Source of the DNA: Macrostomum lignano
Lineage: Eukaryota
Assembly (NCBI GenBank): GCA_002269645.1
Contig: NIVC01002757.1
Span: forward strand, 62,001 to 126,000
Direction of reading: 5' to 3'
DNA length: 64,000 nucleotides
Below are positions 14,594 through 52,300 of the stretch, in pieces. The translations under genes and the position numbers were made by a program. The notes beneath the pieces were generated by a model. The model was not told where the DNA came from and did no database searches. It saw nothing but the letters and a program-made list of their open reading frames with translations. The first letter of the stretch is position 1; every line of letters begins with the position of its first letter.

Positions 14594-14689
14594 CGATGTA
14601 TGTAAAATAGTTCAAGAACGTTTTGCTGACCAATAATTGCGTAACCTGCTTTGAAATTTACTTACAGTACGCGTACTTTGATAGCAGCC

Positions 14690-16760
14690 TATTGAAACGC
14701 ACCGAAAGAGGGATTAACAGTTCATTAAAACACACCGGAAGAGGGATTAGCAGTTCATTTAAACACACCGGAAGAAGGATTAACAGTTCATTTAAACACA
14801 CCGGAAGAAGGATTAGCAGTTCATTTAAACACACCGGAAGAGAGATTAGCAGTTCATTTAAACACACCGGAAGAAGGATTAGCAGTTCATTTAAACACAC
14901 CGGAAGAAAAAGGATGAACAATTCATTTAAACACACCGGAAGAAAAAGGATGAACAATTCATTTAAACACACCGGAAGAAGAATTAACAGTTTATTTAAA
15001 CACACCGGAAGAAGGATTAGCAGTTCATTTAAACACACCGGAAGAAGGATTAACAGTTTATTTATCACACCGGAAGAAGGATTAACAGTTCATTTAAACA
15101 CACCGGAAGAAGGATTAACAGTTTATTTAAACACACCGGAAGAAGGATTAGCAGTTCATTTAAACACACCGGAAGAAAAAGGATGAACAATTCATTTAAA
15201 CACACCGGAAGAAAAAGGATGAACAATTCATTTAAACACACCGGAAGAGAGATTAGCAGTTCATTTAAACACACCGGAAGAAAAAGGATGAACAATTCAT
15301 TTAAACACACCGGAAGAAGGATTAGCAGTTCATTTAAACACAACGGAAGAAGGATTAACAGTTTATTTAAAAACACCGGAAGAAGGATTAACAGTTTATT
15401 TAAACACACCGGAAGAAGGATTAACAGTTTATTTAAAAACACCGGAAGAAGGATTAACAGTTTATTTAAACACACCGGAAGAAGGATTAGCAGTTCATTT
15501 AAACACACCGGAAGAAAAAGGATGAACAATTCATTTAAACACACCGGAAGAAAAATGATGAACAATTCATTTAAACACACCGGAAGAAGGATTAGCAGTT
15601 CATTTAAACACACCGGAAGAAAAAGGATGAACAATTCATTTAAACACACCGGAAGAAGGATTAGCAGTTCATTTAAACACACCGGAAGAAAAAGGATGAA
15701 CAATTCATTTAAACACACCGGAAGAAGGATTAGCAGTTCATTTAAACACACCGGAAGAAAAAGGATGAACAATTCATTTAAACACACCGGAAGAAGGATT
15801 AGCAGTTCATTTAAACACACCAGAAGAAGGATAAACAGTTCATTTAAACACACCGGAAGAAGGATTAGCAGTTCATTTAAACACACCGGAAGAAAAAGGA
15901 TGAACAATTCATTTAAACACACCGGAAGAAAAAGGATGAACAATTCATTTAAACACACCGGAAGAAGGATTAGCAGTTCATTTAAACACACCAGAAGAAG
16001 GATAAACAGTTCATTTAAACACACCGGAAGAAGGATTAGCAGTTCATTTAAACACACCGGAAGAAAAAGGATGAACAATTCATTTAAACACACCGGAAGA
16101 AGGATTAGCAGTTCATTTAAACACACCGGAAGAAGGATAAACAGTTCATTTAAACACACCGGAAGAAGGATAAACAGTTCATTTAAACACACCGGAAGAG
16201 AGATTAGCAGTTTATTTAAACACACTAGAAGAAGGATTAACAGTTCATTTAAACACACCGGAAGAGGAATTAACAGTTCATTTAAACACACCGGAAGAGA
16301 GATTAGCAGTTCATTTAAACACACTAGAAGAAGGATTAACAGTTCATTTAAACACACCGGAAGAAGGATAAACAGTTCATTTAAACACACCGGAAGAAGG
16401 ATTAGCAGTTCATTTAAACACACCGGAAGAAGGATTAACAGTTCATTTAAACACACCGGAAGAAGGATTAACAGTTCATTTAAACACACCGGAAGAAGGA
16501 TTAACAATTCATTTAAACACACCGGAAGAGAGATTAACAGTTCATTTAAACACACCGAAAGAAAAAGGATTAACAGTTCATTTAAACACACCGGAAGAAG
16601 GAATAACAGTTCATTTAAACACACCGGAAGAGGGATTAACAGTTCATTTAAACACACCGAAGAAGGATTAACAATTCATTTAAACACACCGAAAGAAAAA
16701 GGATTAACAGTTCATTTAAACACACCGGAAGAAGGATTAACAGTTCCAAATATAAGAAGG
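14690..16760. repeat. Minisatellite of 33-bp and 36-bp units (about 60 copies)
   Basis: Unit TTCATTTAAACACACCGGAAGAAGGATTAGCAG (33) and variant with AGAAAAAGGATGAACAA (36); accounts for ORFs 15183-16835 (+) and 15065-16657 (-). Confidence 0.95.
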
Positions 16761-18419
16761 ATTAGCTTACAACAAATAAGCTGTATTGTAAAACAAATCA
16801 AGTTAATTCCCAAAATACACGCGAGCCGTTTTTGATGTAAACTGTTTATCCGATTAACGTAGACAAATATATATTAGTATTGTTATATTCTGTTTTATTA
16901 GTACGCTCGTATATATGCCTTTATTCTTTAAAAATACAGAAAAAAATCTGCTAGAAGGCAGCAATTATAATCCAGTGAAAGCAAATTAATCACAAGACTG
17001 GCAAAGAGACAGTTGAAGCGTTGCAAAGAGTTTCAAAAGAAGTCTTTTTATAGAAAAAATATTCGAGAACAACAGCTTCCGCGTACGTGACAAAACGAAG
17101 ATTTTTAATTTGTAGCTTAGCAAAGACAAACAAAGCAAAACGATTTAACTTTTTCCGGCGTTAACTGCGACAGAAGAACAGGTTCTGACATGCAATTAAC
17201 AAGGACTGCTCAAGTAAAAGTACTTCATTATAACTCGATTGATATTCCTATAGAGCTTTTTGTTTAGAATAAAAAGGTCTCATTATATTAGGCGAGTATA
17301 CGAGTATATATAGGCCATACTTATGAGAAAGCTTATACCTAGTTGCTAGTTATGCCATTTTATGACTTTCCGACACAGGAAAAGTACGTAGGAGAGAAAA
17401 TTAGCATAGAATCCTAATTTTCCTTAAAACAGCTCTTCGAATATCAATAGAGTTATTATAAACGAAGCCACATCAGGAGATGCAGAAACATTGGGTCTGC
17501 CCTACTATCAAAGGCAATTATAAATTTTGCGCTGTAAAAGATGGAAATCGCTATGATCTCCAAAATTTACTAATTGGTAATAATTGATAAAACTGATTGA
17601 TTGCATCAGTAACTAAATTGAAACAATTTTGGCTAAAAAAAATTAAAGTTAGCTAGAAAGCTTCAATAATGAAGACATTAAGGAGGTCAGGGAAACAACA
17701 AATCAGTTGACAACGCACATAAAACGTTTAATAAAGATGAGAACGCGATATTGAGAAGGGATTTGAAAACGAAGCTCTTAAATCTCCAAAAAAATATAGA
17801 AAAAGCGTCTTCAACTGAAATTTTATCAAGTATGATCGAGTGTTGAGTGCTAGCTAACTTCCTAAATCCTAACCCACAGAGGCATCAAGTCAGATTAACG
17901 CCCATCTCAAGTCTCGGGCACAATTAGCAATTCAAGACTCCTCATGGGAACAGAAAAATCCTGGCGCCTAATCAGTGCGACATGAAAATCAATTCTAGAT
18001 CTTATAGCTGACACTTTTTCAGGGGGGATATTTCAGCGCTTCTATAGTGGATTAAAAATTTTCATTCCAACACGAAATTAATTTGACACACAACAGACGG
18101 TTTGGTAAACGTGCGCTCGCGCTTACTACAAGTAGCATTTACAGGTAGCTAAAGTTATCTTGTATAAAAAATACAGTTTAAAGTATAAAAAATAAAGAGA
18201 ATTTTATGACTCAATGGGTAAAAATTCTTAATATCCCACTCTCCATTCAACCCGAATGCTTGGTAAGTAGTGTCGGTTTTGGGGGCGTTACAGCTTCTGT
18301 AGAAAGTATTTACATGTAACCAGGCTGATCAACAAGCCTATAAGTTTCTATAAATCTAAATCTAAGAAGTATTAATTTAGCAACCAATTTTTCACCTATC
18401 TAAATATACCCTTTTTGCA

Positions 18420-27060: not shown

Positions 27061-28320
27061 GACCACTGCGTCTCTGTGCGAGGTCTAATGACTTTATAGA
27101 GTGAGTGAAAGTGTCCGGAAGGAACCACTAAACCGGCTGCACGGATACTACGACAAAGGATGCGGCTTAACTTATCAGTAATAGATTTCTAGTCCTAAGA
27201 GCTCTCACCCCCTGCTCTGATCCGAATTGGCTGGCCGCAGAGCCGAAATCCCCCAGCCACTCAGCAATCATTAGTAATTGGGGGATAATTCCTGCCGTCT
27301 CCACCCCGCGTCCCCCTTCCAGTTTCCCTGCCGGGCCACACTCAGCAAATCAGCTTTGCAGAAAGAGAATGGCTGGTTACTATGGACGACAACAACGAAT
27401 GAATGGTAAAAAAGAGACTGGAAGAGTGAATAGAGATGCGTAGAGGCAGACGCAGGGGGAGGTACTTGGCTTAGTGGAAGGACAAACCAGCTGAAGTGCC
27501 CGGGTGGCCTGCAGGTCTGACTCTCGCCCACACGCCCCAGCAGTAAGATTCTAAGCTTCTTTTGTGTCCGCGAACTGCAGCAGCTGTCTCCAGCGGCTGG
27601 GAGCAGCAGCAGTCGCTATTGTCACGGGTCGGGCCTGCAGCTGTGGAAAAAAGCATGCAGTCATACACAGCATTACATGTTTATCTGTCAGTCTTGCAGC
27701 TTTCGCCCCGCAGCGGTACCGCTATCTATTCGGCTATGGATGCCACGCAAGGATGAACCCTTAGGCAGGGAATATCTCGATGAAAAAGTTGAGGCCCTCA
27801 TGGAATCCTTGTAGAAAAGATCTTTACTATCTATAGTTTACTTTTTTCGATTCATTCACATTGAGTCTTGAAAGGCTTTGTCAATTTTTTTGGCTTTGCG
27901 GGCTTTGTCTTCAAACATTGCTGGCTCCCATGGCAAAGAAATAACAAATAGACGACTACTTCGTTAATTCAGTATCGGAAATGTCTATTGAAATGTTCAA
28001 CAACAGCATCGGCAGGGAGTAAGAGAGCATTTAAAATAATCTATTTTTAAAATCACTCTTCAATTTGCGTTCAATTTTTCATTAAACAGAAAGCTCAATT
28101 AAGAGACCAATTTAAGTTTCGCTGGTCAGAAACAACCTTGCAAGCTCGTAAAAAAGTAGTCGATAAGTTGCTGCTCAACAAAATGACAGCATTAGGTTAG
28201 TAGTATATTTAGATTCAAATTTGTCGCTTAATTCAAATCTATAGGCGGAAGGCGTCTTGCATTGTCTAATGGAATAAAAACCTTTAAAATGCCATTACAT
28301 TACAGCTGTGGAGCTATGTG

Positions 28321-28680
28321 ACTACGTAGCACGCAGAAACTGCAGGGTTTTCAGATGTTTTGACGCAAAAAACGCAAATTATACTACTATCTGAAAATGA
28401 AGTAAGTAGTATATGAAAACGATATCCTAAGCGTGATATACTTTAATATGTACTCGTATATGTACATTAATCCATGTACTCATATGTGTACATTAATCCC
28501 ATGTACTGCATTAATCCCTATCTATCTCAAATTGTATATGTACATTGTCTACTTCCATGTCTATCCCAATTCTACATGTGTATTGTCAACTTGTACAGTC
28601 CTTCTATATGTACACTTGCGCATTAATCTACTTCTATGACAATTTTTATATGTACAGTACATTATGTACATTAATCCCCA
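28321..28680 (+). repeat. Left terminal inverted repeat (core 28321-28437, degenerate inner part)
   Basis: 28321-28437 is the reverse complement of 37901-38018 with one A-run indel and three substitutions; inner part made of TGTACATTAATCC-type subrepeats matching 37660-37900 loosely. Confidence 0.9.
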
Positions 28681-31644
28681 ATCTACACGACGGCCCCCGC
28701 TCTGCGTATTTGAATCGTCAACCCCACAAGATTATATGTACAACTCGAAACACTAATTGTTACGTGTACAGCACAGTATATGCGCAGAGGTGGGTCGGTG
28801 TGTGCGCGCCAACTGTACAATCTCACCTACTACCAAATGAGTCAACTAACATTCAAGTTTTACAGAACACGTCATATATGCATATTTATATGTGAATTAC
28901 TCAAAACCAAATGTAACTGATTACGCCATACTACCATTAGTAGAGTTTACAAGTCGAGATTCTTACTGAAAAAGATTACATTCATAATTTTACATTTTTA
29001 TATTGAAAAAGCTGATATCATGTTTATTTTCAACTATTTTCAATAGTTGAAACAGAGAGCATGCAGAAGCGCCCACCCACCCAAATTATACCCAAAATTT
29101 GCAAAGCGGCCGCACATCCAAGAATTAACTCTTCATATTCCGCTGACCCTCAAAAAGCAAACAGTGTACGCAGAAACCGCCGCCCATCCCCAAAATTGGC
29201 GGAGGAGGTGCATGAGTTAGCCAAAAATTGCTGTCCACACTGTTATATCCACTCCTTTTATACTTCATCCCTCTAGAATTCAGCCCTCGTCGCCACTCCG
29301 AGACAATTACGTCATTCCCAACCCCTCTCCCCGAGTCAAAAAAGTTTTCAAAAGACGTATATATATGATACGTATACGATTTATTTAGTCGGCCTCTAAA
29401 TTCAAGACTGTGAAAGCAATGTTTTATATGCTTCGTATCACAGTGCGGATGATACAAGACCCTTGTCGCACTTTATCCGCAAAATATGCCACTGACGCTG
29501 GTGTACACTATGGAATTAATTATGTTGCATGTTGAATCACCCTTTATCTCCGGCCATATTCAAAATTCAACCCCAAGACTTGTTCGAAAACATCCACCCC
29601 TCAGCAGACCCCTATATAGCAAATCGAATTGAACCACTCGCCCCTGTTTCTCTCTGCACCCTTCTAAATGCCAAGGAATTTCGACCCCTCTCTCCATTTT
29701 CAGTGTACAAACAGATCTTTTCACAGCACGGACCCTATATTAAACCTCATTCAGCAAAACCCCTCTTCTCCAATTACGTCATCCATGCCGCCCCAGTTAG
29801 CAAGAAACTAACTTTCAATGCACACATCAACCCCACGAATCTGAGCAAATCCGAGTCAACCTCCAACTGCATCGACCCAATACCCCTGCATCTGTCAATG
29901 TACACAACCTATGAATCAGTGTATCCTCTGCATACAATTCCGAGACTGAATTCTATAGATGTGTTTTGTCAAAGAAATACTTTGGCACTATAACCAATGC
30001 GGTATACTAGAAGTAGTGAAGTCCACCCGCCCAAAAACGTGCTGCTATGTCAATTCTATCGCCTCCCCTACCTTCTCACTTCAAGCTTTCAGACTCTATG
30101 AAAGTTCGATCGCTCGAAGCAGGAATGAATCACCCACGGACCTCTCCAAGTTGGAATTCCGTCCAAGTTTATTAAAAGCTAAATTAGTAGCTCGTAAAAA
30201 GCACATTTCATAAAAGGCGAGTTTTCTACAGTTTCTTTAATTTTACCGTTTCAAGTTACACTTTGTTGATCAAAATCAGTAATTTCATCACTGGAAACCA
30301 TAATTTCAACAGCTAATTTGCCCAAATGCCGTTTCAACTTTACTTGAGACGGCTTCGAAGCAAGAATGATCCCACACGGAAGTCCACAAGCCAGCCCAGC
30401 CTAAGAAATGGTTGATTAATGGTAAAAATTTATTAGAAATGCAAACTTTTTCACGAAAACCACGAGTTTTCCTCATTTTTCGATTTTTAACGTTAAAATG
30501 CTTACTTTATGGATCGAAATCTGTCATTTTATCAATAGAAATCATAATTTTAGCTAATAAACCATCAAAAATGCTGTTTAATCATTCAAATAGGCATGTA
30601 TATTGCCCAAGAAGCTGGGGAAATATTGTATAGACACTGTAAAAATTGGGGCTAAAAACACAGTCTGCTATTAAACTTAAAGTTTTCAGTGTTCGATTGA
30701 TTTCGATTACTAAATCATGCCATTGATGCTATTTTAAACGTTATTCTCAGTTCCGAAGCTCCCAACAGCCTCTTTTAGATGCACTGAATCCTGAATCAGT
30801 TTTGCTGCATACTTTGCATGTTGAATCACCCTTCAATTCAAAGATTCTCCACTACATACATTCTAGCCATATTCAAAATTCAACCCAGGACTATTAATGT
30901 TCGCCAATATGGAGAGAACAGCACAACACCTACCCCAGCCTCACCAAGGCAATTCTTTACTACCGCGTAAATGCCATAACTGACTCTCTGTCCCTATAAC
31001 CCCAGGTCCATCCCTAAACATTACGTAAACAGAAGTAGAAAACTCTGTCTCTCTGTTTTGGCTTGTGACAGGGATCTCCGTCACTTCATTACTCTTTGTG
31101 GATATTTTAGATGATGGCAAGAGCTTTTCATCGACTATTACTCTTCACCAAGCCTCTGTCAATCGGATGCTTTGCACACAAGCCCCATTTCACCAAGGTT
31201 ATTAAATTGATACAGCGATTTTTAACAACCATTTTCTCGCAGAGACCGGCGGGCCTTAAAAACCACAGAAGTTATCTTTCATATTTTCATCTGTATTTAG
31301 CTATTATTGGTCCGCCAAGGTATTGTATTTTGAATAAACACCGTTTTCTATCAGATTTAAGTCGAAAAGACATGCTGCAAGAGGAAGCTGTCTTCCTAAT
31401 TAAGAGACTGTACTCTGGCGGAGCAGCAGTTTCCACTCCTGCGAGAATGCTGGTTGGGTGGCTCCGCTCAGATCCAATAAAAAACCGCATGAGAAAAGAA
31501 TTTATGGGGTATTTTCGACCCCAACTTTTCTATACCAAATGCGGAACCGAGTGTACAATCGTACACTAATCTAGAAAATATAGACCCGGGAAAGAAAACC
31601 ACGCACACCTCTCGTGCCCCTACCCCATCCTCCCTCTCGCGGGG

Positions 31645-31652
31645 TATATAAA
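31645..31652 (+). promoter_or_regulatory. TATA box upstream of the putative first PolB exon
   Basis: TATATAAA in GC-rich context, about 190 nt before ATG 31839 whose short frame ends at a GTGAGT donor (31972). Confidence 0.5.
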
Positions 31653-33041
31653 GCGGGTGAGAGCTGCTGCAGCCGCATCAGCAAAAGCAGCCAGCAGCAG
31701 AAGCCACAACAGCAGCATCACAGCTAGCAGCAACAGCAGAAGCAACGACAGCCACCAGCCCTCTGCCTCTAACATCAGCTGCAGCAGCATCATTAACATC
31801 ACCAGCAGCATCAACAACCATCTACCTTCCCCATCGAAATGGCATCGAAGCGCTCTGCTGCGGAAGCGGCTATTTCAGCCTTGTGGGGGCAGGCCGGCCC
31901 ATCCAGGCAGCAACCGCAGCAACAACAGCAGCAGCATCAGCCTCCGGCAGCAAAGAGGGGACGACAGCTAGGTGAGTCTCTGCGCGCGTAAAACTATGCT
32001 TTTAGCATTTGCAAAATCTAAAATCAGAAAAATAGGGCTGTATAATTGCTTTAGCATTTGTGTGTGATTTGCAAACTTCACGCTTGTTGAAATATGGGCT
32101 TTCTTTGAAACCACAGCTTTCCATCTTTAACATTCATTTTGGCTTAAAATTTCTGTAATTGCTTTTCAGCTTTAGCATTTGTGTGATTTGCAAACTTAAC
32201 GCTTGTTGAAATATGGGCTTTCTTTGAAGCCACATCTTTCCATCTTTAACATTCATTTTGGCTTAAAATTTCTGAATTTCCTCTTGACATAGATGTTGAA
32301 GTTGGATTTCTCAAATTCAGGCCTATTGAAATAACAGAGTTTTAGAGAATATCCGCAACAGCAGTATAGCCGGATAATGCCTGTAGAGGATAGTCATAAA
32401 ATTTCTGGGGTTATGTGACTAGAGAAGCAAAAACAGCAATCCTGTGGCGAGCGCGTGACTTAGCGGGGGGCGGGCAGGCGGCAGTGATAAAATCAACCCC
32501 CGATTTTTGGGCATGATTATGTAATCACCGCTGCAATTGACAGTAGGGGTTTTGGCAGCAATAAAACTTGGCTGCTACAGTGAGGGTTATTAATCAGACA
32601 GCTTTAAAAATCCAAAAGCGGCCGCGCGGTATTGTTGCTAGGTGTCAAGGAGGTACAATGGAGGCACGTGCTGATAGGGGTTTTCTTAAATTTTACAATG
32701 GCTGCTGCGGCAGGATCAGTGTTATCAGGGTCATCAATCAAACATTTTTGACAGCCTAAAATTCGAAGCGGGGGTCAATCAACCCCACATTTCTTTTGTT
32801 GCTACGTGTCGGAACGTGCCGAGTTGGGGTTTTTACAACTCGCCGATTTTTGTTGCTTGGGGTGGGGCGATAAAATTGCTGCTGCTGCAGGCAATCAATC
32901 AAAAGTTTTTGACAGTTGTAAAATTCCAAGCGGTCAGAATTTTAGTCACCATGCGCATTTTTATTGCAGATTTGGCTCAATTTCAACCCCCACCCCAGCC
33001 CGACACTGTCGAAGGCGATGGTAAGGAGTTGATTTTATTTC

Positions 33042-36000
33042 ATGAGTCATACACCCGCAGCCTCTCGCAATTCTAATTTCAAAACCCTCCATTTTTCAGG
33101 CTTTATTGCGCGTCTTGGCGGGGCAAAGGCCCTGCCAAAATTTAAGGCAAAAGGGGTCGAATACGAGATAGTATTCACAAATTTGAGCGATATTCGCTCA
33201 ACATTTGAGAAAATAATAGCAACCCTCTGCGCCGACCTGAATGCAGATGACTTCGTCGCATCTAAGCTGACGGCGGACAATATGATGCTCGCCATCAATG
33301 TCCCGCCCGTCCGCCGCAGCCGCTTCACTGCAGAGCTTGTCTTCAAGCATATCAACAAGGTGCTGCAGTCGGACTCCAGCGTCTTGGGCAACAACTTTAA
33401 ATTGTTTTTGCTCAAGGCCTGGGTCCCGCGGGGCGGCTGCGGCAGCTTAGATGCGGCGGAGCGCCACATTCAGGCCAGGCATGCTATGGGCTATAATTAT
33501 GTCATCATCGCCAACAGCGACAAGCGCTGTCTAATTCGAGCGCTGCTTGTCGCCAAGGCCTTTGCCGACCTGCAGGCCAAAGTCATCACGAGAACTACGT
33601 GGCAAACAATCAAGGCCGACTCCCCAATGCAGAAGAAGATTACTGGAGAATTACAAATTACCGCCAAATTGTATTCGGTGAGTAAAAATGTTCTTGCGCA
33701 TTTTAATTTGCATTTTTATTAATATACAAATGTTTTAGTCTTTATCAACCATCACACAGGCCGGGCCTTTCGGGGTTGACGTGCTCCCCCAACTGCTCGC
33801 CGCCATGAACGCTCAGTCGCCCGGCCGAGATTTCGGCGTCCGGGTGTACAGTGCCGAGGAGGGCAATACGTGCGTGTACGCCCTACCCGGCCGCGAAGTG
33901 CTGAATCTGCACCTAATTGGCGAACACTTTAACGCGGTGTGCAAGGTGCCGCCATTTTTCGGAGCCCGCCGCTATTGTGACCGCTGCCAGCAGCCGTATG
34001 ATTGCAACTCTGGAGAGCACAAGTGCGCCAACACCTGCCCTCAATGCAAAGCGCCTGGCTCCAATTGCAAGAGCCTGCGGTGTGACTATAAGCGCTGCGC
34101 TGATTGTGGCCTCAAGTGCTACAATCAGCAGTGCTTCGACAACCACCTTCGCAAGAACCGGGCTGGCCGGTCGCGCTGCAGCTCAACCCGTGTCTGCCCC
34201 AATTGCGGGTATTGCGAAGACCTGAAAGCCGGTCAAAAGGAGCCAGAGCACAAGTGCGGCCACATCAAATGCCCACTGTGTAAACAGTATGATGAGGCCG
34301 GCTCGCATTTGTGCTTCGTCAAGGCTCCTAAAGTGAAAGCATCGACTATGCCGTACGTGTTCTACGATACGGAAACATACACGGACGAGGAGAAGCAGCA
34401 TCACGTGCATCTGGTGACTGCCGTCACGTGCTGCGAGACCTGCTCCGGCCGGGCGTTTCCGCGCGAGACTTGCCGCCTCTGCAATGGCCTGCATAGCGCC
34501 GCCAATTGTCTGACTGGCCGCGATCTGGGGGAGGAATTCTCCAATTGCGTCAGCCACTCAGACTGCGCCTGCCAAATGGCCGATTTTGTGGCTGTGGGCC
34601 CGGCCTCGCTGAATGCTTTTTTCACCTGGCTGAGCACCACATTCCGCGGCGGCGTCATTGTTGTCGCGCATAATGCATCAGGCTATGATGCGTTTCTACT
34701 GCTTGGCGCTCTGCTCAACGGCCTGGCCAAGAAGCGGCCCCAAGTACTGTTCCAGGGCAGCCGGCTAATGAGCATGACGGTTGACAAATTGGTATTCAAA
34801 GATTCGTTAAATTTTATACCAATCCCGCTTGCGCAATTCCCCAAAGCGCTGGGGCTCGCTGACACAAAGCTGGCCAAGGGGACGTTTCCCCACGAGTTCA
34901 ACAAGCCGGCTAATTGGAACTACGTGGGCCCCTACCCGGCTATTGAATATTATGGCGGCAAAGCAAACAAGGACTATGACTCAATCTGTGCTTGGCTAGC
35001 CTCGCGACAGGGCGAGTTGTTCAACTTTAATCGGGAGTATCTCGATTATTGTTTGAGCGACACAGTCCTGCTTCGCGAGGGCTGCATCAAGTACAGGGCA
35101 ATAATTGGTGAAATTTGTGACGGCCTGGAACCATTTGTACAGGCCAATACGATTGCCAGTTTGGCAATGGCCGTTTTCACCACCCGATTTATGGAGCCCA
35201 ACTCGCTCGGCGTGATTGCCCGGCAGGCCGACCAGCAGTCATTCAAGGCGCGCAAGTGGCTGGCCTATTTGAATGCCACCGAATTTGGCGGGCGGCTGCG
35301 AACCTGCGACTCTACTGGCGGCGAGGCTGTCATTCTCGGCCGCAAGGTGGACGGCTTCGATGAGGCGAGCAACACTGTCTTGCAGTTTCATGGCTGTTTC
35401 TACCATGGCTGCGAGCAGTGCATGCCTGATCAGGATGCTGTCCACCCGCTCAAACGGCAGCCTCTGAGCCATATCCGCCACGAGACTGAGTGGTTCACTC
35501 GCGAGTTGGAGCGGCAAAACTACAGTGTTCGTACAATTTGGGAGCACGAATACGACACTGTATTGGCATCGCAGGCTGATTTCATTGCCGCAACTGCACA
35601 TCTGCGCGCTCCACTCAAGATGGAAGATGCTCTCTACGGCGGCCGCGTAGAATGTTTTATCCCGCATGCTGTGGCCAGCGAGACTGAGACTCTCAAATAT
35701 CGGGATGTGGTGAGTAGTGATACTACTAATATAGTAGAATATTTTGCAAAAATACAGTTTATGAAAATAATGTTTTATTTCAACTTGCAGGTCTCTCTGT
35801 ACCCGACGGTGCAGTCGAAAGACCCGTACCCGATTGGCCACCCGGTGCAACATCCGACGCCGCAAGTGCTAGATTCTGACGCGCTGGCTAGTTACTTTGG
35901 TATTGCCAAAGTGACTGTGTTGCCGCCGTCAAATTTGCACATTCCGCTGCTGCCCTACAGGGTGCAAAAGAAGCTCTTTTTTGGGCTTTGCCGCACCTGT

Positions 36001-37169
36001 ATGGAGCAGCAGTGCGGCGACGATTGTGACCACTCAGACGAGCAGCGGGCACTGACTGGTACCTGGGCAACGCCGGAGCTGCAAAAGGCCTTCCAGTTGG
36101 GCTACCGGCTGCAGGTGGTGCACGCGCTAGCCTACTGGACAGAGAAGCGGACCGGTCTGTTCAGTGACTATGTCAGCACCTTCCTCAAATTGAAGGCTGA
36201 GTCGAGCGGCTCCCCCGGCATGTCGGATGAAGACAAGGCCGCCTATATTGCCGATTTCTTTGCAAAGGAGGGCGTCACGCTGGACAAGGTCGAGCCCAAC
36301 CCCGGACTTCGCTTTGTAGCGAAAATCTTTTTGAATTCGTAAGTAATTATAAATTCTGTTTTTTAAACGATTTTCTTCTACTAATAGTAGCACTTCTTTT
36401 CACAACACACAGGCTCTGGGGCAAATTTTGTCAGCGTGACGACCTGACATCGACAGAAATAGTATCCAGCTACGAGGACTGGCTCGCCTGGCTGACCGAC
36501 CCCAACCTCAAAGTCAAGGCCTGCGAACCGATTGGCAGCGAGTTTATGCTGCTAGAGTACCGGCACCGCTACTTTAATCAGCGGCCCTTCCGGTACTCCA
36601 ATGTGCCAATCGGTGTCTTTACGACCACGCAGGCCCGGCTGCGCCTGTACGAGGCATTGGAGGGGCTCGGCGAACGGGCCATTTACTGCGACACTGACTC
36701 GTAAGTAATGCATTGATAAATTATTTTAGAATTGAATAGTTGGCATGTGGAACTAATTATCTCTCTCCCCACACCCAGGGTCGTTTACCGGCATTCCGAG
36801 GGCCAATGGGAGCCGCCCCATGGCACGAGCCTCGGAATGTGGACCGACGAGGTGCCCGCAGGCAGCCGGATGACCGACTTTGTAAGTGGAGGGCCCAAGC
36901 TCTACACTTACATTGTCGAGGATGCGGCCGGAGTCCAGAGCCAAGTCCTGAAATGCAAGGGCATCCGCCTGACTCCGGAGATTCGGGAACGCAGCGACGA
37001 ATTGCGCAGTGCCCTACTACACGGCGGCTCCCTGAAACTGCCGCAGTTTCAGTTCAGGCGCGACAAGGCGTCTTGCACCATACACACTGTTAGTATGGAC
37101 AAGACGTTTCAGCGCGTCCTGACGAAACGCGTGTACGGGACCTGCAGCAGGCCTTATGGCTATAAATAA
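33042..37169 (+). CDS. polB: Protein-primed family B DNA polymerase (pPolB), intron-containing, about 1270-1295 aa depending on first exon
   Basis: Exons (33042 or 33100)-33677, 33760-35709, 35791-36338, 36413-36700, 36779-37169; introns of 82, 81, 74 and 78 nt, all GTRAGT..CAG. Spliced product has ExoI YVFYDTET, ExoII AHNASGYD, ExoIII YCLSDT, LYGGRVE, YRDVVSLYP, KIFLNSLWGKF, YCDTDSV, LGMWTDE, SGGPKLY, KCKGI. No stops or frameshifts. Confidence 0.95.
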
Positions 37170-37659
37170 TGTATTCTAGTTGTGACTGACAATTCAATGT
37201 ACATTTTGCAATATTAAATTAGTAAAATCTATTTATTGTACATAATTTGCATTGTAATACTGCTGTATTTATCAGAATCTATTTGCTGTATATATATAAT
37301 TCATGTACATAGAGCATTTTTGTATTGTGTGTGGCGAAATTGCCAATGTAAAAATCTATTGTACATATTTTACATGTCAAACCTGTTTAAAATCATTTAT
37401 GAAGAGAAAATTATTGAAAAAACAATGTAAAATTTTCTGTATATTCTATTTGCTGGTGATGGTGTACATGTCTCGATTCCTGTAATATGCTACTGATTAA
37501 ATGTAAATATATCTTCATTGTAAATACTTATACATGATGTACGCTACACTGTTAGTTGACTCATTTGGTAGTAGATGAGATTAGTAATTCTCGCCTCTGC
37601 GTACATGTAGTATTGTACATGTAATTTTGGTGCGCGCTCAGACCGTCTGGGGATGACAC

Positions 37660-38018
37660 TGTACATGTAGAGTGTAGATTAATGCACATACTGTGTACAT
37701 ATAGAATTGGGGATAGACATGGACATTTGAGATATGGATTAATGTACATGGAATTAATGTACATATCCAATTTGAGATATTTAGGGATTAATGTACATGG
37801 AATTAATGTACATATCCATTTTGAGATAGATAGGGATTATTGAACATGGAATTAATGTACATATATGAGCACATGGATTATTACGACTACATATTGCCAC
37901 ATCACGCTTAGGATAGCGTTTTTGTATACTACTTACTTCATTTTTCAGATAGTAGTATAATTTGCGTTTTTTGCGTCAAAACATCTGAAAACCCTGCAGT
38001 TTCTGCGTGCTACGTAGT
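37660..38018 (-). repeat. Right terminal inverted repeat (core 37901-38018)
   Basis: Reverse complement of the left TIR; ends GCTACGTAGT. Confidence 0.9.
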
Positions 38019-38024
38019 TATGTG

Positions 38025-45588: not shown

Positions 45589-47232
45589 CTAATTATAAGC
45601 CAACTTCAGAAGGACCAACCGGTTTCTATTAGAAGTGAAGGCCAACCACCTCGCGTTGTCTTTTTCAACCAGCTCCAGACGTTCAATATGGCCACAAAGT
45701 CCAGTCTCCTTGACAGGAAGCTCAAACGAGTCAACAAAAACATCATCGCCAGTTGAGATGACAATTTCATTGCCGGTCAATTTAACAATGAAGCCTTTGC
45801 TATCAATGGCCAGCCTCCTAACTCTCGCTGCCGCGTCAACGGGTTCGTCGTCATCGTCGGAGTCTTTGTCCGGCAGCGAACTGATGGCTTGGCCAGTGAT
45901 GCCGCAGATTTTCAGCACAGATTCAAGAACGCCCCAGTTAAACAGCAGCAATTTGCTGCCGACAAGAGCTAGATCGGTGAAGAAAATTCCTTTATCGTGA
46001 AGAGGCCACAAGTCAATCACTGACAGCAATTCAGAAGAGTCTTTGTCGATAGAAAAAACGCACTGCTTTGCCAAATCAAGGAAGCAAAGCTTGTCAGAAT
46101 TGCCCGCAATGGCGTCGAACGATCTACTGACGCCGTCAAAGCTGCTGCCACTGATCACTTTGACCAAACCGCCGCTAAGGTCAGTCACAGTTACAGTGCT
46201 GCGATGCGCCACAAACAACTGCTGACGGTTGCTGTCACAGTGCAGCCCAGTGACTTTACCTGACGTCGAGCTGAAATTGCACCCGACATTGAAAACTTTT
46301 TTATGCTCCGCTGAAAACGCCACAATGTTCAGCTTGTCGTCGTTTTGTCTTTCGAAAAATACGCACGGTGCGCCAAGAGGTTTAATGTTGCCGCGGCCAG
46401 TGCAATCAGCTGATCGCTTTACAAAACCGACCGAATTGACTACAAAGCCAGCTGTGTTGCTACAGGCTGCCAAGAACTTCGGCTCAGACTGAAGATTCAC
46501 CTGAAACACTTGATTGGATGAAACAGGCGTGATATCAAGATCATCGTTATCGTCACCGCTATCGTCCAAATCAAGCCAGCAGTCGGTCATCACGCTGGTC
46601 ATATGGTCGTCAATTGTAGACTGGAACTGTTGTACTCCAGCGGCCACGTCGCCAAACGACCTTAGCCGCATCTCGGCTCTAGGACCAGCGTCGATGTAGT
46701 CACGCTGAAACCCTCGAAGTTCGTTTCGCTTGTTATTAAAATCTTTGCATCGTTTAGAAGCGTCTACAAGCCAGGCGCTGTTTTTCTTGGATAGCTCCGC
46801 CAACTTTTTCATCTCCTGGGCGGCCAGGGCGAGCGAGGCCTCCTTCTCGCGTGACTCAGCTTCGTCAGCGTCTGTCAGCCTCTCTGCCACCGATTGGTGC
46901 ACCAACTGCAGTCGGTCCACCGTTTTCTGGCGCCACTGCTGCAATTTTTCCTGTACAGCGTTGAACATTTCGTTGACTTCCTGCACCTCGACGGTAAGAG
47001 CCTGCAGTTCCTTCGTCATCTTTGCTCGTTGTTTTGCTACGGGAACTAGCTGTCTCATTTTCCACGATACATCAGCTGCTTGCTTGCGCACTGTCTCGGA
47101 CTCCTTATCCAGGTGCTCCTGGCAAAGAACTTTATTGTTACCGAGTAAGCCAACTTCTACTGATGGATTGTCGCAAGATTTGACGCTGCAAGTTTCGCGT
47201 AGTTTTTTTATTGCTTCTCCACGGCGTGGCAT
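45589..47232 (-). CDS. TRIM-like protein: degenerate B-box, coiled coil, C-terminal beta-propeller-like region, 547 aa, single exon
   Basis: CSVKSC..VLCQEH, about 170 aa helical E/K/Q-rich region, acidic linker, then repeats such as VTGLHCDSNRQQLFVAHRSTVTVTDLSGGLVKVI and DAIAGNSDKLCFLDLAKQCVFSID (NHL-like). No RING seen. Confidence 0.7.
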   Translation of the reverse strand: MPRRGEAIKKLRETCSVKSCDNPSVEVGLLGNNKVLCQEHLDKESETVRKQAADVSWKMRQLVPVAKQRAKMTKELQALTVEVQEVNEMFNAVQEKLQQWRQKTVDRLQLVHQSVAERLTDADEAESREKEASLALAAQEMKKLAELSKKNSAWLVDASKRCKDFNNKRNELRGFQRDYIDAGPRAEMRLRSFGDVAAGVQQFQSTIDDHMTSVMTDCWLDLDDSGDDNDDLDITPVSSNQVFQVNLQSEPKFLAACSNTAGFVVNSVGFVKRSADCTGRGNIKPLGAPCVFFERQNDDKLNIVAFSAEHKKVFNVGCNFSSTSGKVTGLHCDSNRQQLFVAHRSTVTVTDLSGGLVKVISGSSFDGVSRSFDAIAGNSDKLCFLDLAKQCVFSIDKDSSELLSVIDLWPLHDKGIFFTDLALVGSKLLLFNWGVLESVLKICGITGQAISSLPDKDSDDDDEPVDAAARVRRLAIDSKGFIVKLTGNEIVISTGDDVFVDSFELPVKETGLCGHIERLELVEKDNARWLAFTSNRNRLVLLKLAYN

Positions 47233-48997
47233 AGTAGTGAAGTGTAGTTTGGCTGAAAATTAGATTTCAAAAATGAGAACCTGTGTTTCGTCAAATTGAT
47301 AATAGGGTATAACTTGGCTGTTACGGTTGCTTATGTATTAAGAAATGCTTGAGTGGCCTAAAGTGACTTGGACTTATAGTAAGCGTCATTTAAATGTACA
47401 TAGTATCTACTATTTGAGACTGTAATTTATAAAATTGATAAGATTGTACTTTTACGACTAGTGCGAGCGACAAGCTCTCATCTCATTCCCCGCCTCTCCT
47501 CTCTTCTCTCATCTTTCGTCTTCTATTCCCTTTCCTTTCCACTCTCATCTGGTCAGCAGACAAGAGCTGAATTACCTTTCTGGCCCCTGAGGCACCCTTA
47601 TAGCGCTGCAGCATTCCCAGCCGGTTCTCATTCTTAACTATATCATCGGTAGTAATACTTAGTAATTAATACCGTTAACTATGGAATTTTATAGGCTTTT
47701 AATAATTTCGATATCTTAGATATCTGGGACTTCCAACCTCTAAATCCTACTAAACACACTGTATTCAGAAATTAATTAACGTCAAGTCTCACAAATAAAT
47801 TTGAGATTTATTAAAGCAATAGTTTTAAAGCAAAGCCAGACGCGTTGCTCTGCAAAATAAATTGTTAAATCTATTTTCTTTGAAACACACCAGGTAGGTC
47901 TGTCCAGGTAATAACTGACTTAGGTAACATTATATAGACTTTGAAGCTCAGATTCACAGACTGACAGAATAAAGCGAAAGCAAAGCTGTAGCCAACGCAG
48001 ACTCTTGCGGTACAATTCGGAAAAAGACGATCTATAAACTTTTGATATTACTACTTTAATAATAAAGTAAGTAGTGCAGTGTGAGTGTTGCGGAAAATAC
48101 CAACTATAGCTGACGTATTGCAAAAAGTGGCAGAAACATTAATAATAATAATAATAATAACAATTTTATTAATACAAATGAGTGAGACTTGGGTTAGAGA
48201 GATAAGCAAAATGCTATATCAATATACATAACCTTTGAGTATTCAATCCCATCGCGCTAATTGAAGTACTTTATATTAAAGTAACACTTATTTTTGAAAA
48301 AAAATACAAAAATATTTAAAGCCTAATTGCAAAATTCATTCGATACCCTTGCAATTGCGAAATTGCAAAGGTACTCGTATCGAGCTATTTCAACTATTCA
48401 ATAGTTGAAAGTGGAAAATATGAAAAATAATAGATTCTTTTTTCTAAGTGCAATTGCAACTTAAATTAAAGAAAAAAGGTCACCACATTTATTAACAACA
48501 TTAAAGCGACTAGCATTATGAAAGTACAAAAATTATGATAACAGGATAATTAATACTTTATTCTGTAGGCATAAAATAAAAAGTTGTCTCTTCACTTCAA
48601 GCAAAAAATTGATTGCAGCTTGAATAAGTTTTTTATTGAGGTATAACAGTCGAATTCCGATGACATGAATATAATGATTATCAAGACAAAGAGATTGTTA
48701 GTTTATTTTGGCCAAATTCATATTGTCAATTTATGGACTATCGGAAAATAGAAAATAGCTGTATGCTTATTAATATATAAAATTATCTATATTTATTCTT
48801 TTAAATGAGTAAGGAACACCTCGACCTGCTAAACTTAACTTGAGAAACAAAATAAGTAAATAAATATATTGCAAAGAATGACTAATGGCATATTTTAATA
48901 GTGTGTTTTAGATTTACTCAGTAGTTAAGTTTAAGTTAAGTTTAAAAGGGGTACAATATGCTTCTGGCTAACTAGAGCGCTTTAACCATAACCTTAT

Positions 48998-49397: not shown

Positions 49398-52300
49398 TCA
49401 ATGATCGTCATTAAGCATCTGCTTCATCAGCAACTGCTGGTCCTGGTAACAGCGAGAACACAGGAAATTGGTCTCCTCTCGAGCGAACATGTCGCAGTTC
49501 GGGCCGACACACTGCATCAGAGCCGAACGGCGCATTTGTTGGTCGATAATTTCGGCAGACCGGCGCTTCTGTAATTCGTCTAATTGTGAGAACCGAGCCA
49601 TAGCCGAGGTCAGGTAGCTGCTAACTGCGTCAGTGAAATGTGGCGGTCGATTAGTAACGCCCAGGTGGGCGCATAGCAACCCGGTTGAGGCGCTATCCAG
49701 TAGCGCCTGGTCCGCCACCGAGGAGGCATCAGCTGGTGAAGTTGGCGTTGCAACCGACGGCCATTTACTAGATTTACCTGTTCGCCTAATTGGTAGACGC
49801 TGCTGCATGGCTTTGAGCAGTTGATGGCCAAGAGATCGGCTCGGGTTCTGTTGGCCCTGCGACTGGGAAACAAGGACGGGAGGGGTAGGTGTTAGTACGA
49901 TAAACTAGTACTAGTATAACATGATCCACTACGTTACACTGTTACACTACATGTTACAGTAGATGTTACACTATACTTTACAGTAGCTCTTACACTATAT
50001 GTTACAGTAGCTGTTACACTATATGTTACAGTAGCTGTTGCACTGTATGTTACAGTAGCTGTTACACTATATGTTACAGTAGCTGTTGCACTGTATGTTA
50101 CAGTAGCTGTTACACTATATGTTACAGTAGCTGTTACACTGTATGTTACAGTAGCTGTTACACTGTATGTTACAGTAGCTGTTACACTGTATGTTACAGT
50201 AGCTGTTACACTACATGTTACAGTAGCTGTTACACTACATGTTACAGTAGCTGTTACACTATATGTTACAGTAGCTGTTACACTACATGTTACAGTAGCT
50301 GTTACACTACATGTTACAGTAGCTGTTACACTACATGTTACAGTAGCTGTTACACTACATGTTACAGTAGCTGTTACACTATATGTTACAGTAGCTGTTA
50401 CACTACATGTTACAGCAGCTGTTACAGCATCTGTTACACTATATGTTACAGTAGCTGTTACACTACATGTTACAGTAGCTGTTACACTACATGTTACAGT
50501 AGCTGTTACACTACATGTTACAGTAGATGTTACACTACATGTTACAGTAGCTGTTACACTACATGTTACAGTAGCTGTTACACTATATGTTACAGTAGCT
50601 GTTACACTACATGTTACAGTAGCTGTTACACTACATGTTACAGTAGCTGTTACACTACATGTTACAGCATCTGTTACACTACATGTTACAGCATCTGTTA
50701 CACTACATGTTACAGCATCTGTTACACTACATGTTACAGCATCTGTTACACTACATGTTACAGCATCTGTTACACTACATGTTACAGCATCTGTTACACT
50801 ATACTTTACAGTAGCTGTTACACTACATGTTACAGCATCTGTTACACTACATGTTACAGCATCTGTTACACAACATGTTACAGCAGCTCACCATGCCCCC
50901 TGGATACAATCCATCAACACCGCCGCGCATTCTACGACAGTCGAGAGTAGCAGATCTCTGCTGCAACTGCGAATGCAACTGTTGTTGCTGCTGCTGCTGT
51001 TGATACTCAACAAAGCCGCTATCGTCTGCTGAAACAGCACCGACTGTTGCCATAGACAACTGCGCCGCATTGCCAACTGAACTACCCGAACGAGTTAGTC
51101 CAACTACTACTGGGCGTTGAGTAACAGCAGCAACGGCAGCCTGAGCGACAGCCGCCGGAAGCGGCTGCGGCGGAGCCACAGGCAATCTCAGAGTTGAGCA
51201 TCTCAGATAAGAAGCCAGCAGTTTAGCTCGAAGCCTGCCGCCCATTTCTGTATCGGGCGTCGCCACTGGAGCGTCGTTAACAACAGCCGCAGCGGCAGAT
51301 TTCGACGACCATTTCCAGTGCGGCCCGGGATCGGCACTAAAGTGCAGAGGCAGCGGGGTGTGCAGATCGCAGCAGCACAATGGAACAGCGTAGGGCAAGT
51401 TTACAGCAGTTTCCATGGGAACCAATGCGGAGAAATGAGCTGCATCGTAGGCTAGCAATACCGGATGCTTAGAACAATGCTCTGGTTTCTCTAACAGCGG
51501 CAGATAGATTCCGGCAAACGGTATTGGAGCTAAATTGTCACCTTCGGAGTCTTTGACAAACTGATCGGCTATCACTATGATGGGCCGGCGGAATACATTG
51601 GCGGCTACGAATACGTGGATTTCTTCTAGAGAATCCAGCTGATGCTGATGCTGCTGACCGATCTGCTGCTGTTGTTGCTGCTTAGGCTGGGCGCTAGCCA
51701 GTTGTAGCAACGATTTCCATTCCGATTGCCATTCCGACTCGCTTAATCTCAGGCCCGTGGCTCGGTACAGCTCCCGGGCTGTCTGCCATCTCCAGCGCCT
51801 GTACACAGCTGCACTATGAGACAGCAAATATTCGTGCAACGCGCTTCGGAATACCAATTGACGATCGTGGAAGCCTAGACTGCTCAGACTGATAGCATGT
51901 AGAAGGCAGTTGCCATCGCCGCTCGTTTGCAGAGGCCACAATCGTTGGGACAGGCCAAGGTCGTGCCTAGGTATTAGTGTGAGGACTTACGCGTCAGCTG
52001 CTTGTACTCTAAGCATATTAAATCTCTAGTCTACCTTCAGGAAACTGGTAACAATGTCAGGCTACATCCCTAGTTTACATTCAGGAAACTGGTAACAATG
52101 TCAGGCTACATCCCTAGTTTACCATTAGGAAACTGGTAACAATGTCAGGCTACATCCCTAGTTTACCATTAGGAAACTGGTAACAATGTCAGGCTATATC
52201 CCTAGTTTACCATTAGGAAACTGGTAACAATGTCAGGCTATATCCCTAGTTTACCATTAGGAAACTGGTAACAATGTCAGGCTACATCCCTAGTTTACCA

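Follow-up and report, generated by a model that had tools for sequence, protein, structure and literature searches.

Among mobile elements whose DNA polymerase belongs to family B and is protein-primed (pPolB), the closest described systems are the Polintons with VSR-bearing pPolB2 (Jeong et al., 10.1101/2023.08.22.554363), known from molluscs and a marine nematode, and the intact Mavericks of vertebrates (Barreat and Katzourakis, PMC8097293). A related element of 9,698 bp (28321..38018) is described here from a stretch of 64,000 nucleotides of Macrostomum lignano (GCA_002269645.1, contig NIVC01002757.1, positions 62,001 to 126,000 of the forward strand), hereafter the window, in which all coordinates are counted. 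Like the pPolB2 Polintons, it has terminal inverted repeats (TIRs), a 6-bp target-site duplication, and a PF03175 polymerase in which the Exo/Pol motifs are accompanied by a VSR-type insert. It differs from them in its size (9.7 kb versus 13–25 kb), in being found without integrase, capsid, ATPase, and protease, in its six spliceosomal introns, and in its ends, ACTAC instead of AGTAGT (Jeong et al., 10.1101/2023.08.22.554363). With the vertebrate Mavericks it shares TIRs, the 6-bp duplication, and a short repeated end motif beginning with A, whereas those elements are described as intronless, carry all core genes on one element, and end in (AGT)2, (AG)3, or (AC)3A, in contrast to ACTAC(T/G) of the window type (Barreat and Katzourakis, PMC8097293). 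Three introns of the polymerase gene split motifs A, B, and C, and a bias of introns toward such conserved motifs is general across relatives of this gene. The element itself is probably one part of a two-part Polinton.

Introns in the polymerase gene

The pPolB gene (31839..37169, forward strand) is modeled with seven exons (31839–31971, 32970–33020, 33100–33677, 33760–35709, 35791–36338, 36413–36700, and 36779–37169), which encode 1312 aa with no internal stop. The frame matches PF03175 (Pfam, E 1e-27), and the motifs of a protein-primed family B polymerase are intact: Exo I, II, and III, a VSR-type insert, A, B, C, and KxY. The insert, a nuclease-type sequence with FHGCFYHG at 35230..35550 (+), is labeled after the names of JGI homologs and Jeong et al., and its match to a PHROG endonuclease is weak (E 0.011). 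The closest database proteins are labeled Macrostomum lignano, with identity up to 96%. Half of the six introns are in polymerase motifs: intron A (35710..35790, 81 nt, phase 0) splits motif A as YRDV|VSLYP, intron B (36339..36412, 74 nt, phase 2) is inserted in the Ser codon of motif B (KIFLNS|LWGKF), and intron C (36701..36778, 78 nt, phase 2) in the Ser codon of motif C (YCDTDS|VVY). An earlier note, made from the sequence of the window, had given four or five introns and about 1270 aa, which the gene model corrects; its positions for the three motif introns are confirmed by coordinates, spliced alignment, and contig joins, and its stop-free, in-frame intron A holds for the window copy. The other three are intron 1 (31972..32969, 998 nt, GT-AG), intron 2 (33021..33099, 79 nt, GT-AG), and intron 3 (33678..33759, 82 nt, with an alternative acceptor at 33738), the last in a variable region. 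Junctions of introns 1–3 are predicted, with no RNA join in the contigs described below. Intron 1 also contains a 119-bp tandem duplication (32048–32278), which repeats acceptor-like sequence.

The introns in motifs A, B, and C are ordinary spliceosomal introns, removed at the predicted bases. They are AT-rich GT-AG introns with the donor consensus and pyrimidine tract of the U2 type, and a spliced profile aligner with 91 non-Macrostomum homologs recovers their junctions unaided. A weak GC-AG intron called by the same aligner inside a zinc-finger insert was rejected. Indeed, assembled contigs of sequencing runs guessed to be RNA contain exact junction joins for intron A in X2, X3, and X4, for intron B in X2 and X4, and for intron C in X1–X5 (A, 3/3; B, 2/3; C, 3/3 within X2–X4), the joins of A and B coming from one study and those of C from two; the joins are absent from the other two runs compared, X14 and X18, which are likely DNA. 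Exact removal from RNA, as far as contigs of runs with a guessed type can tell, is the behavior of spliceosomal introns. A self-splicing fold or a Hint or LAGLIDADG insert is not indicated, with introns of 74–81 nt and most intron-A copies breaking the frame, and Rfam intron families have no match anywhere in the element. Intein domains are not listed for any of 120 + 4 polymerase homologs, in a search that was weak for long proteins. Furthermore, the five short introns of the gene are unlike each other beyond the splice signals (highest z 2.5 in 10 pairs), and no repeat longer than 1–3 bases was found at the intron boundaries.

Intron A was also compared among copies of the element in the genome. 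Family 1, to which the window element belongs, was represented by 30 copies taken by DNA search (44 matches), and intron A could be read in 28 of them. Its length is 81–88 nt, and some of the length changes may be assembly errors; it is in-frame and stop-free in 16/28 loci (6/14 distinct sequences) and out of frame in 12/28 (8/14 distinct sequences). Family 2, whose protein is about 70% identical to that of family 1 over the exon region around intron A, has introns at the same four places, including that of intron 3, and intron A is in-frame in 0/9 copies read.

Intron positions across relatives

The window gene by itself gives a modest signal, the probability that at least three of its six introns fall at sites this conserved being about 0.01. 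For a survey of relatives, a protein pattern lying between motifs A and B served to find 121 metagenome loci, and the best 80 of them were each aligned by a spliced aligner to the profile of 91 homologs. With the window and one family-2 copy added, the 82 loci gave 166 raw intron calls, of which 84 calls in 30 loci were kept, namely those breaking the frame with good splice signals plus four strong in-frame ones; the 82 calls dropped were mostly in-frame loops in variable regions. The stretch between motifs A and B was excluded from the tests because the way of selecting loci disfavors introns there. Database protein fragments that start or end at motifs A and B (P0121, P0122, P0125, P0126, P0136, P0155, and others) are unverified leads and were not counted.

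Introns are carried by 28 of the 80 metagenome relatives, and their bias toward motifs is real and general. The 31 distinct positions have a mean conservation of 0.669 against 0.505 expected, and 14 of them are in the top conservation tenth, where 3.2 are expected. Nulls matched for phase and flank reach a mean of 0.511–0.525 (p ≤ 5e-5), and the bias persists when neighboring positions are collapsed to 19 clusters (p 0.003). Counted as lineage-by-position events, 23/55 are located in motifs A, B, and C versus 1.8 expected, or 20/51 versus 1.7 when the window genome is removed; 38 of the 76 introns of sampled relatives lie in 20 motif columns. Re-adding every frame-breaking call has little effect on the bias. 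Since 23 of the 30 intron-bearing loci align without frameshift or stop, few introns can be hidden. The non-random placement suspected in the earlier note is thus upheld, far more strongly across relatives than in the window gene alone: intron positions are more conserved than chance expectation, and homologs show motif preference, not motif-blind scatter. The 21 positions outside A, B, and C are conserved as well (p 0.0006), in the Exo II, VSR, LG, GGR, and KxKG motifs, so that the rule is conservation and not intein sites. The preceding base is G at 30/39 positions and the preceding dinucleotide AG at 13/39, as for proto-splice sites.

Origins of the motif introns

Ten distinct intron positions are found within motifs A, B, and C. 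Measured from what we take to be the intein insertion sites of motifs A and B, they are offset by −3, +2, and +4 nt in A and by +2, +3, +7, +8, and +10 nt in B. The offsets in motif C, where the pol-c intein site is YGD|TDS (Mimivirus, PMC549080), are +4 and +8 nt, and none of the ten is zero. Positions 1–8 nt apart cannot be one ancestral set. In the polymerase tree, intron carriers are scattered among intron-less sequences, and approximately unbiased tests (run on 30 of the 95 rows by fast search, with 2000 replicates) reject one clade for the carriers of the shared positions 1007.1, 1100.1, 823.2, and 1005.2, and for all carriers. At the motif-B site, the Ser codon is TCN in the window gene and AGY elsewhere. 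The motif introns are therefore of many origins, by repeated gain, sliding, or transfer, or else with much loss; the order of events is not given by these data. The motif-B introns of the sister sequences L150 and L124 differ in position by one base (T|GG versus TG|G), probably through intron sliding.

Possible causes of the motif bias

Our tentative preference, at somewhat less than an even chance, is a sieve: an intron would survive at a site that tolerates nothing but its exact removal. Introns would be gained repeatedly at proto-splice sites while the element resides in the host nucleus, and a drive for compactness would remove them by inexact deletion or by decay within loops. They would persist at invariant codons, where only base-exact removal leaves a working enzyme, and the motif introns would have no function of their own. 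The breadth of motifs and the many phases fit this process. As such a sieve predicts, events concentrate in A, B, and C in intron-poor lineages (13/17 in those with three positions or fewer, window genome aside) and scatter in the intron-richest lineage L131 (1/11) and in L158 (0/5 counted). For inteins and group I introns, Swithers et al. (PMC2814812) considered retention at conserved sites as a possible cause.

Several observations weigh against the sieve. The intron-rich lineage L135 still has 3/8 events in A, B, and C. With all 166 raw calls the test of mean conservation weakens to p 0.02 (0.09 from column 101); the A/B/C excess survives there (p about 1e-5). Beside intron-bearing polymerases, no intron occurs in the 1513 aligned residues of integrase genes or the 1378 of ATPase genes, although the polymerase density would predict about six; the contrast is weak, with 5 and 8 loci from about five lineages. 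Identical positions recur in three or four separate clades, so hot spots or transfer would be needed on top of the sieve. In addition, inexact intron loss was never observed, so that the sieving step is our inference, and spliceosomal introns of cellular genes are reported to show no preference for conserved sites (Swithers et al., PMC2814812).

Some of these observations would be accommodated by a possible but rather unlikely alternative, in which nucleases of Polintons or of co-infecting elements cut the motif DNA of rivals and repair of the cuts makes introns, which then hide the site. The staggered positions around each motif, their recurrence in separate clades, and the intron-free integrase and ATPase genes agree with such hot spots and shielding. 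Candidate nucleases exist: the polymerases carry the VSR-type nuclease, and exchange of polymerases among Polintons has been reported (Jeong et al., 10.1101/2023.08.22.554363). Homing endonucleases are reported from Polinton-like viruses, and in one co-resident Polinton type the polymerase frame lies next to an endonuclease VII frame. As a precedent, PRP8 has an intron at its intein codon (Monier et al., PMC3749507). However, at least eight motifs are affected, too many for one nuclease, the boundary repeats are only 1–3 bases, the cutting specificity is hypothetical, and 52 of the 80 relatives persist without an accepted intron.

An improbable source of the bias is spread by recombination: motif DNA would be the only stretch still alike between diverged elements, and introns there would be copied across lineages. 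The four shared positions in distant clades and the Trp-Gly codons of motif B, nearly invariant in DNA, suit this process, yet ten different positions are left unexplained, and the shared motif-B site has the differing Ser codons given above. Conversion of former mobile inserts, offered in the earlier note, is very improbable. Motifs A, B, and C are indeed intein motifs of family B polymerases (the pol-c site, PMC549080), so that inteins or group I introns might have been replaced by, or have decayed into, spliceosomal introns; however, 0/10 motif positions coincide with intein-type sites, introns occur in the Exo II, VSR, and KxKG motifs too, and the intein and Rfam searches above returned nothing. 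Hardly credible is the other proposal of the earlier note, a splicing switch like that of the P element in which some tissues would retain intron A and so produce a polymerase that is dead or dominant-negative, because, for all that the 16 in-frame family-1 loci are stop-free (an 87-nt variant included) and that unspliced intron A occurs in RNA-guessed contigs (possibly as DNA carry-over), spliced forms exist, the frame is not conserved in the copies of either family, each of the 11 other motif-A introns surveyed either contains a stop or disrupts the frame, and some in-frame stop-free intron among six is expected by chance at about 0.13.

A polymerase-only element and its possible partners

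The window element begins with 5′-ACTACGTAG and ends with CTACGTAGT-3′. It is flanked by the 6-bp duplication TATGTG (28315..28320 and 38019..38024, +), and its left TIR (28321..28546, +) is 88% identical to the right one (37805..38018, −). Apart from the polymerase gene, no rve integrase, capsid, ATPase, or protease was found inside it, and no rve integrase frame is present in the listed copies of families 1 and 2. Without integrase, capsid, and ATPase, it is not a full Polinton by the usual definition; judged by its sequence, it appears to work like the replication module of one. Duplications of 6 bp were likewise seen around four family-2 elements and three further family-1 elements, one of them a derivative of 2.7 kb. 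Two family-2 copies, in G000 C4072 (L262–L264) and C2932 (L265–L267), are inserted in the capsid-like gene of another Polinton with the duplication GACGAG, showing that the polymerase-only unit moves alone. Both loci had been candidates for full-length elements and were rejected as such, being nested polymerase-only elements with their own target duplication.

Elements with the complementary gene set are present in the genome, where 150 of 2744 candidates from an integrase search were scored. Those in G000 C175 (L233/L234), C181 (L235/L236), C251, C150, C807, and C976 are 10.4–11.9 kb long, with ACTAC ends, 6-bp duplications, and many near-identical copies. They carry an integrase and capsid-like, ATPase-like, and TBP-like frames, with a Fic domain in the C181 type, and no polymerase; a polymerase match is found in 0/12 integrase/capsid-like loci. 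Six of the 12 have ACTAC ends with 6-bp duplications, and in the other six, where the fetched stretch may fall short, ends were not found. The first ~30 bases of the left TIR of the window element are common with elements such as C175, and the first bases pair by family: those of C175 with family 1 (81–87% over 30 bases) and those of C976 with family 2 (22/24). Compared by eye, none of the polymerase matches (134/134 candidates scored) is within 40 kb of a capsid match of the same type (150 of 328 scored). The capsid-like frame is 28% identical (E 6e-53) to a frame beside a protease and an ATPase in a metagenome element; it has no Pfam, PHROG, or PDB match, and its label rests on size, gene order, and this similarity, not on a fold. 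A Pox_A32 search of the genome gave no match, which means little since weak ATPase frames are present.

With complementary gene sets, separate elements, and shared termini, the window element and the polymerase-less elements probably form a two-part Polinton. Mobile as a unit but lacking an integrase gene, the polymerase element would depend on polymerase-less elements whose ends match its own for integrase and perhaps for capsids. Alternatively, both may be defective derivatives of different kinds that rely on a full element which the assembly lacks. The polymerase-less elements are not firmly placed in the integrase tree. Not every integrase element lacks a polymerase: a distant pPolB of its own is carried by the C531/C728/C106/C96 type (with AGTAGT ends, where these were seen), with an endonuclease VII frame beside it in C728 and C96. 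A distant pPolB in cis is also found in C84, C297, and C889, and no polymerase was seen in C494 (12 kb, AGTAGT ends). A joint scheme is quite unlikely as a whole: the window element would be the segment that supplies the replicase in a two-part Polinton, and Polinton polymerase motifs would be true hot spots of intron gain through element-borne nucleases, with the introns shielding the gene.

Some variants of the element were also encountered. A small PC4-like frame (L077:4055–4549, −; Pfam E 0.18) is present in family-2 elements and was not seen in family 1; it is 27–33% identical to the PC4 frames that other elements carry. L192, L193, and L194 (G000 C657, C982, and C440) are polymerase-less family-1 derivatives, whose left 2–4 kb are mirrored into long inverted arms. 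L066 (G000 C234:52000–61999) belongs to a third lineage, with a degraded polymerase that is about 33% identical and shows no evident motif-A intron, beside an unannotated frame of 1008 aa. Scans of viral contigs gave no relative.

Other features of the window

On the reverse strand at 49398–51986, a 48-bp tandem array (49939–50888) separates OTU protease and A20 zinc-finger exons; at 45589–47259, also on the reverse strand, is a single frame of 556 aa with an N-terminal Cys/His motif, a coiled-coil-like stretch, and no Pfam match. Open frames at 14611–16835 are built of a 33-bp repeat (61 copies), and their PF22709 match is probably spurious.

Significance and comparison with known systems

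Spliceosomal introns have been reported to be blind to conserved sites (PMC2814812) and intact Mavericks to lack introns (PMC8097293), yet about a third of the relatives surveyed here carry them. Polinton polymerases thus offer a compact system for testing whether intron position reflects the site of birth or the impossibility of loss, and frame-based screens miss such elements exactly at the diagnostic motifs. If introns do arise at nuclease cuts, they would be host-type introns serving as armor in conflicts of mobile elements, and the motifs a predictable place to watch intron birth. The literature search, with most subscription papers, Repbase, and supplements outside its reach, found neither a two-part Polinton reported nor a bias of Polinton introns toward motifs. 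If the two-part organization is true, screens that demand polymerase and integrase side by side overlook such elements, and a Polinton divided in this way, with the polymerase on one element and integrase and capsid on another, would represent a step toward segmented viruses.

Bidnaviruses have a segmented genome, in which a pPolB segment and other segments share their ends. They differ from the window element in their single-stranded DNA, different capsid, and lack of integrase. Their pPolB is derived from Polintons (PMC11071308). Regarding intron position, inteins and group I introns likewise prefer the most conserved polymerase motifs, whereas the introns described here are short, AT-rich, and GT-AG, have no nuclease or self-splicing fold, and miss the intein sites by 2–10 nt (Swithers et al., PMC2814812; Mimivirus, PMC549080). 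The PRP8 gene of Bathycoccus likewise has a spliceosomal intron close to a homing site, at a distance of one or a few bases, but it is a single case with a known intein, while Polinton polymerases have many positions in many lineages and no intein was found in the homologs searched (Monier et al., PMC3749507). Finally, Polinton-like elements of dinoflagellates also contain spliceosomal introns, which are introners forming young repeated families, in contrast to the mutually unlike introns of the window gene (Gozashti and Corbett-Detig, 10.1101/2025.03.18.643946).

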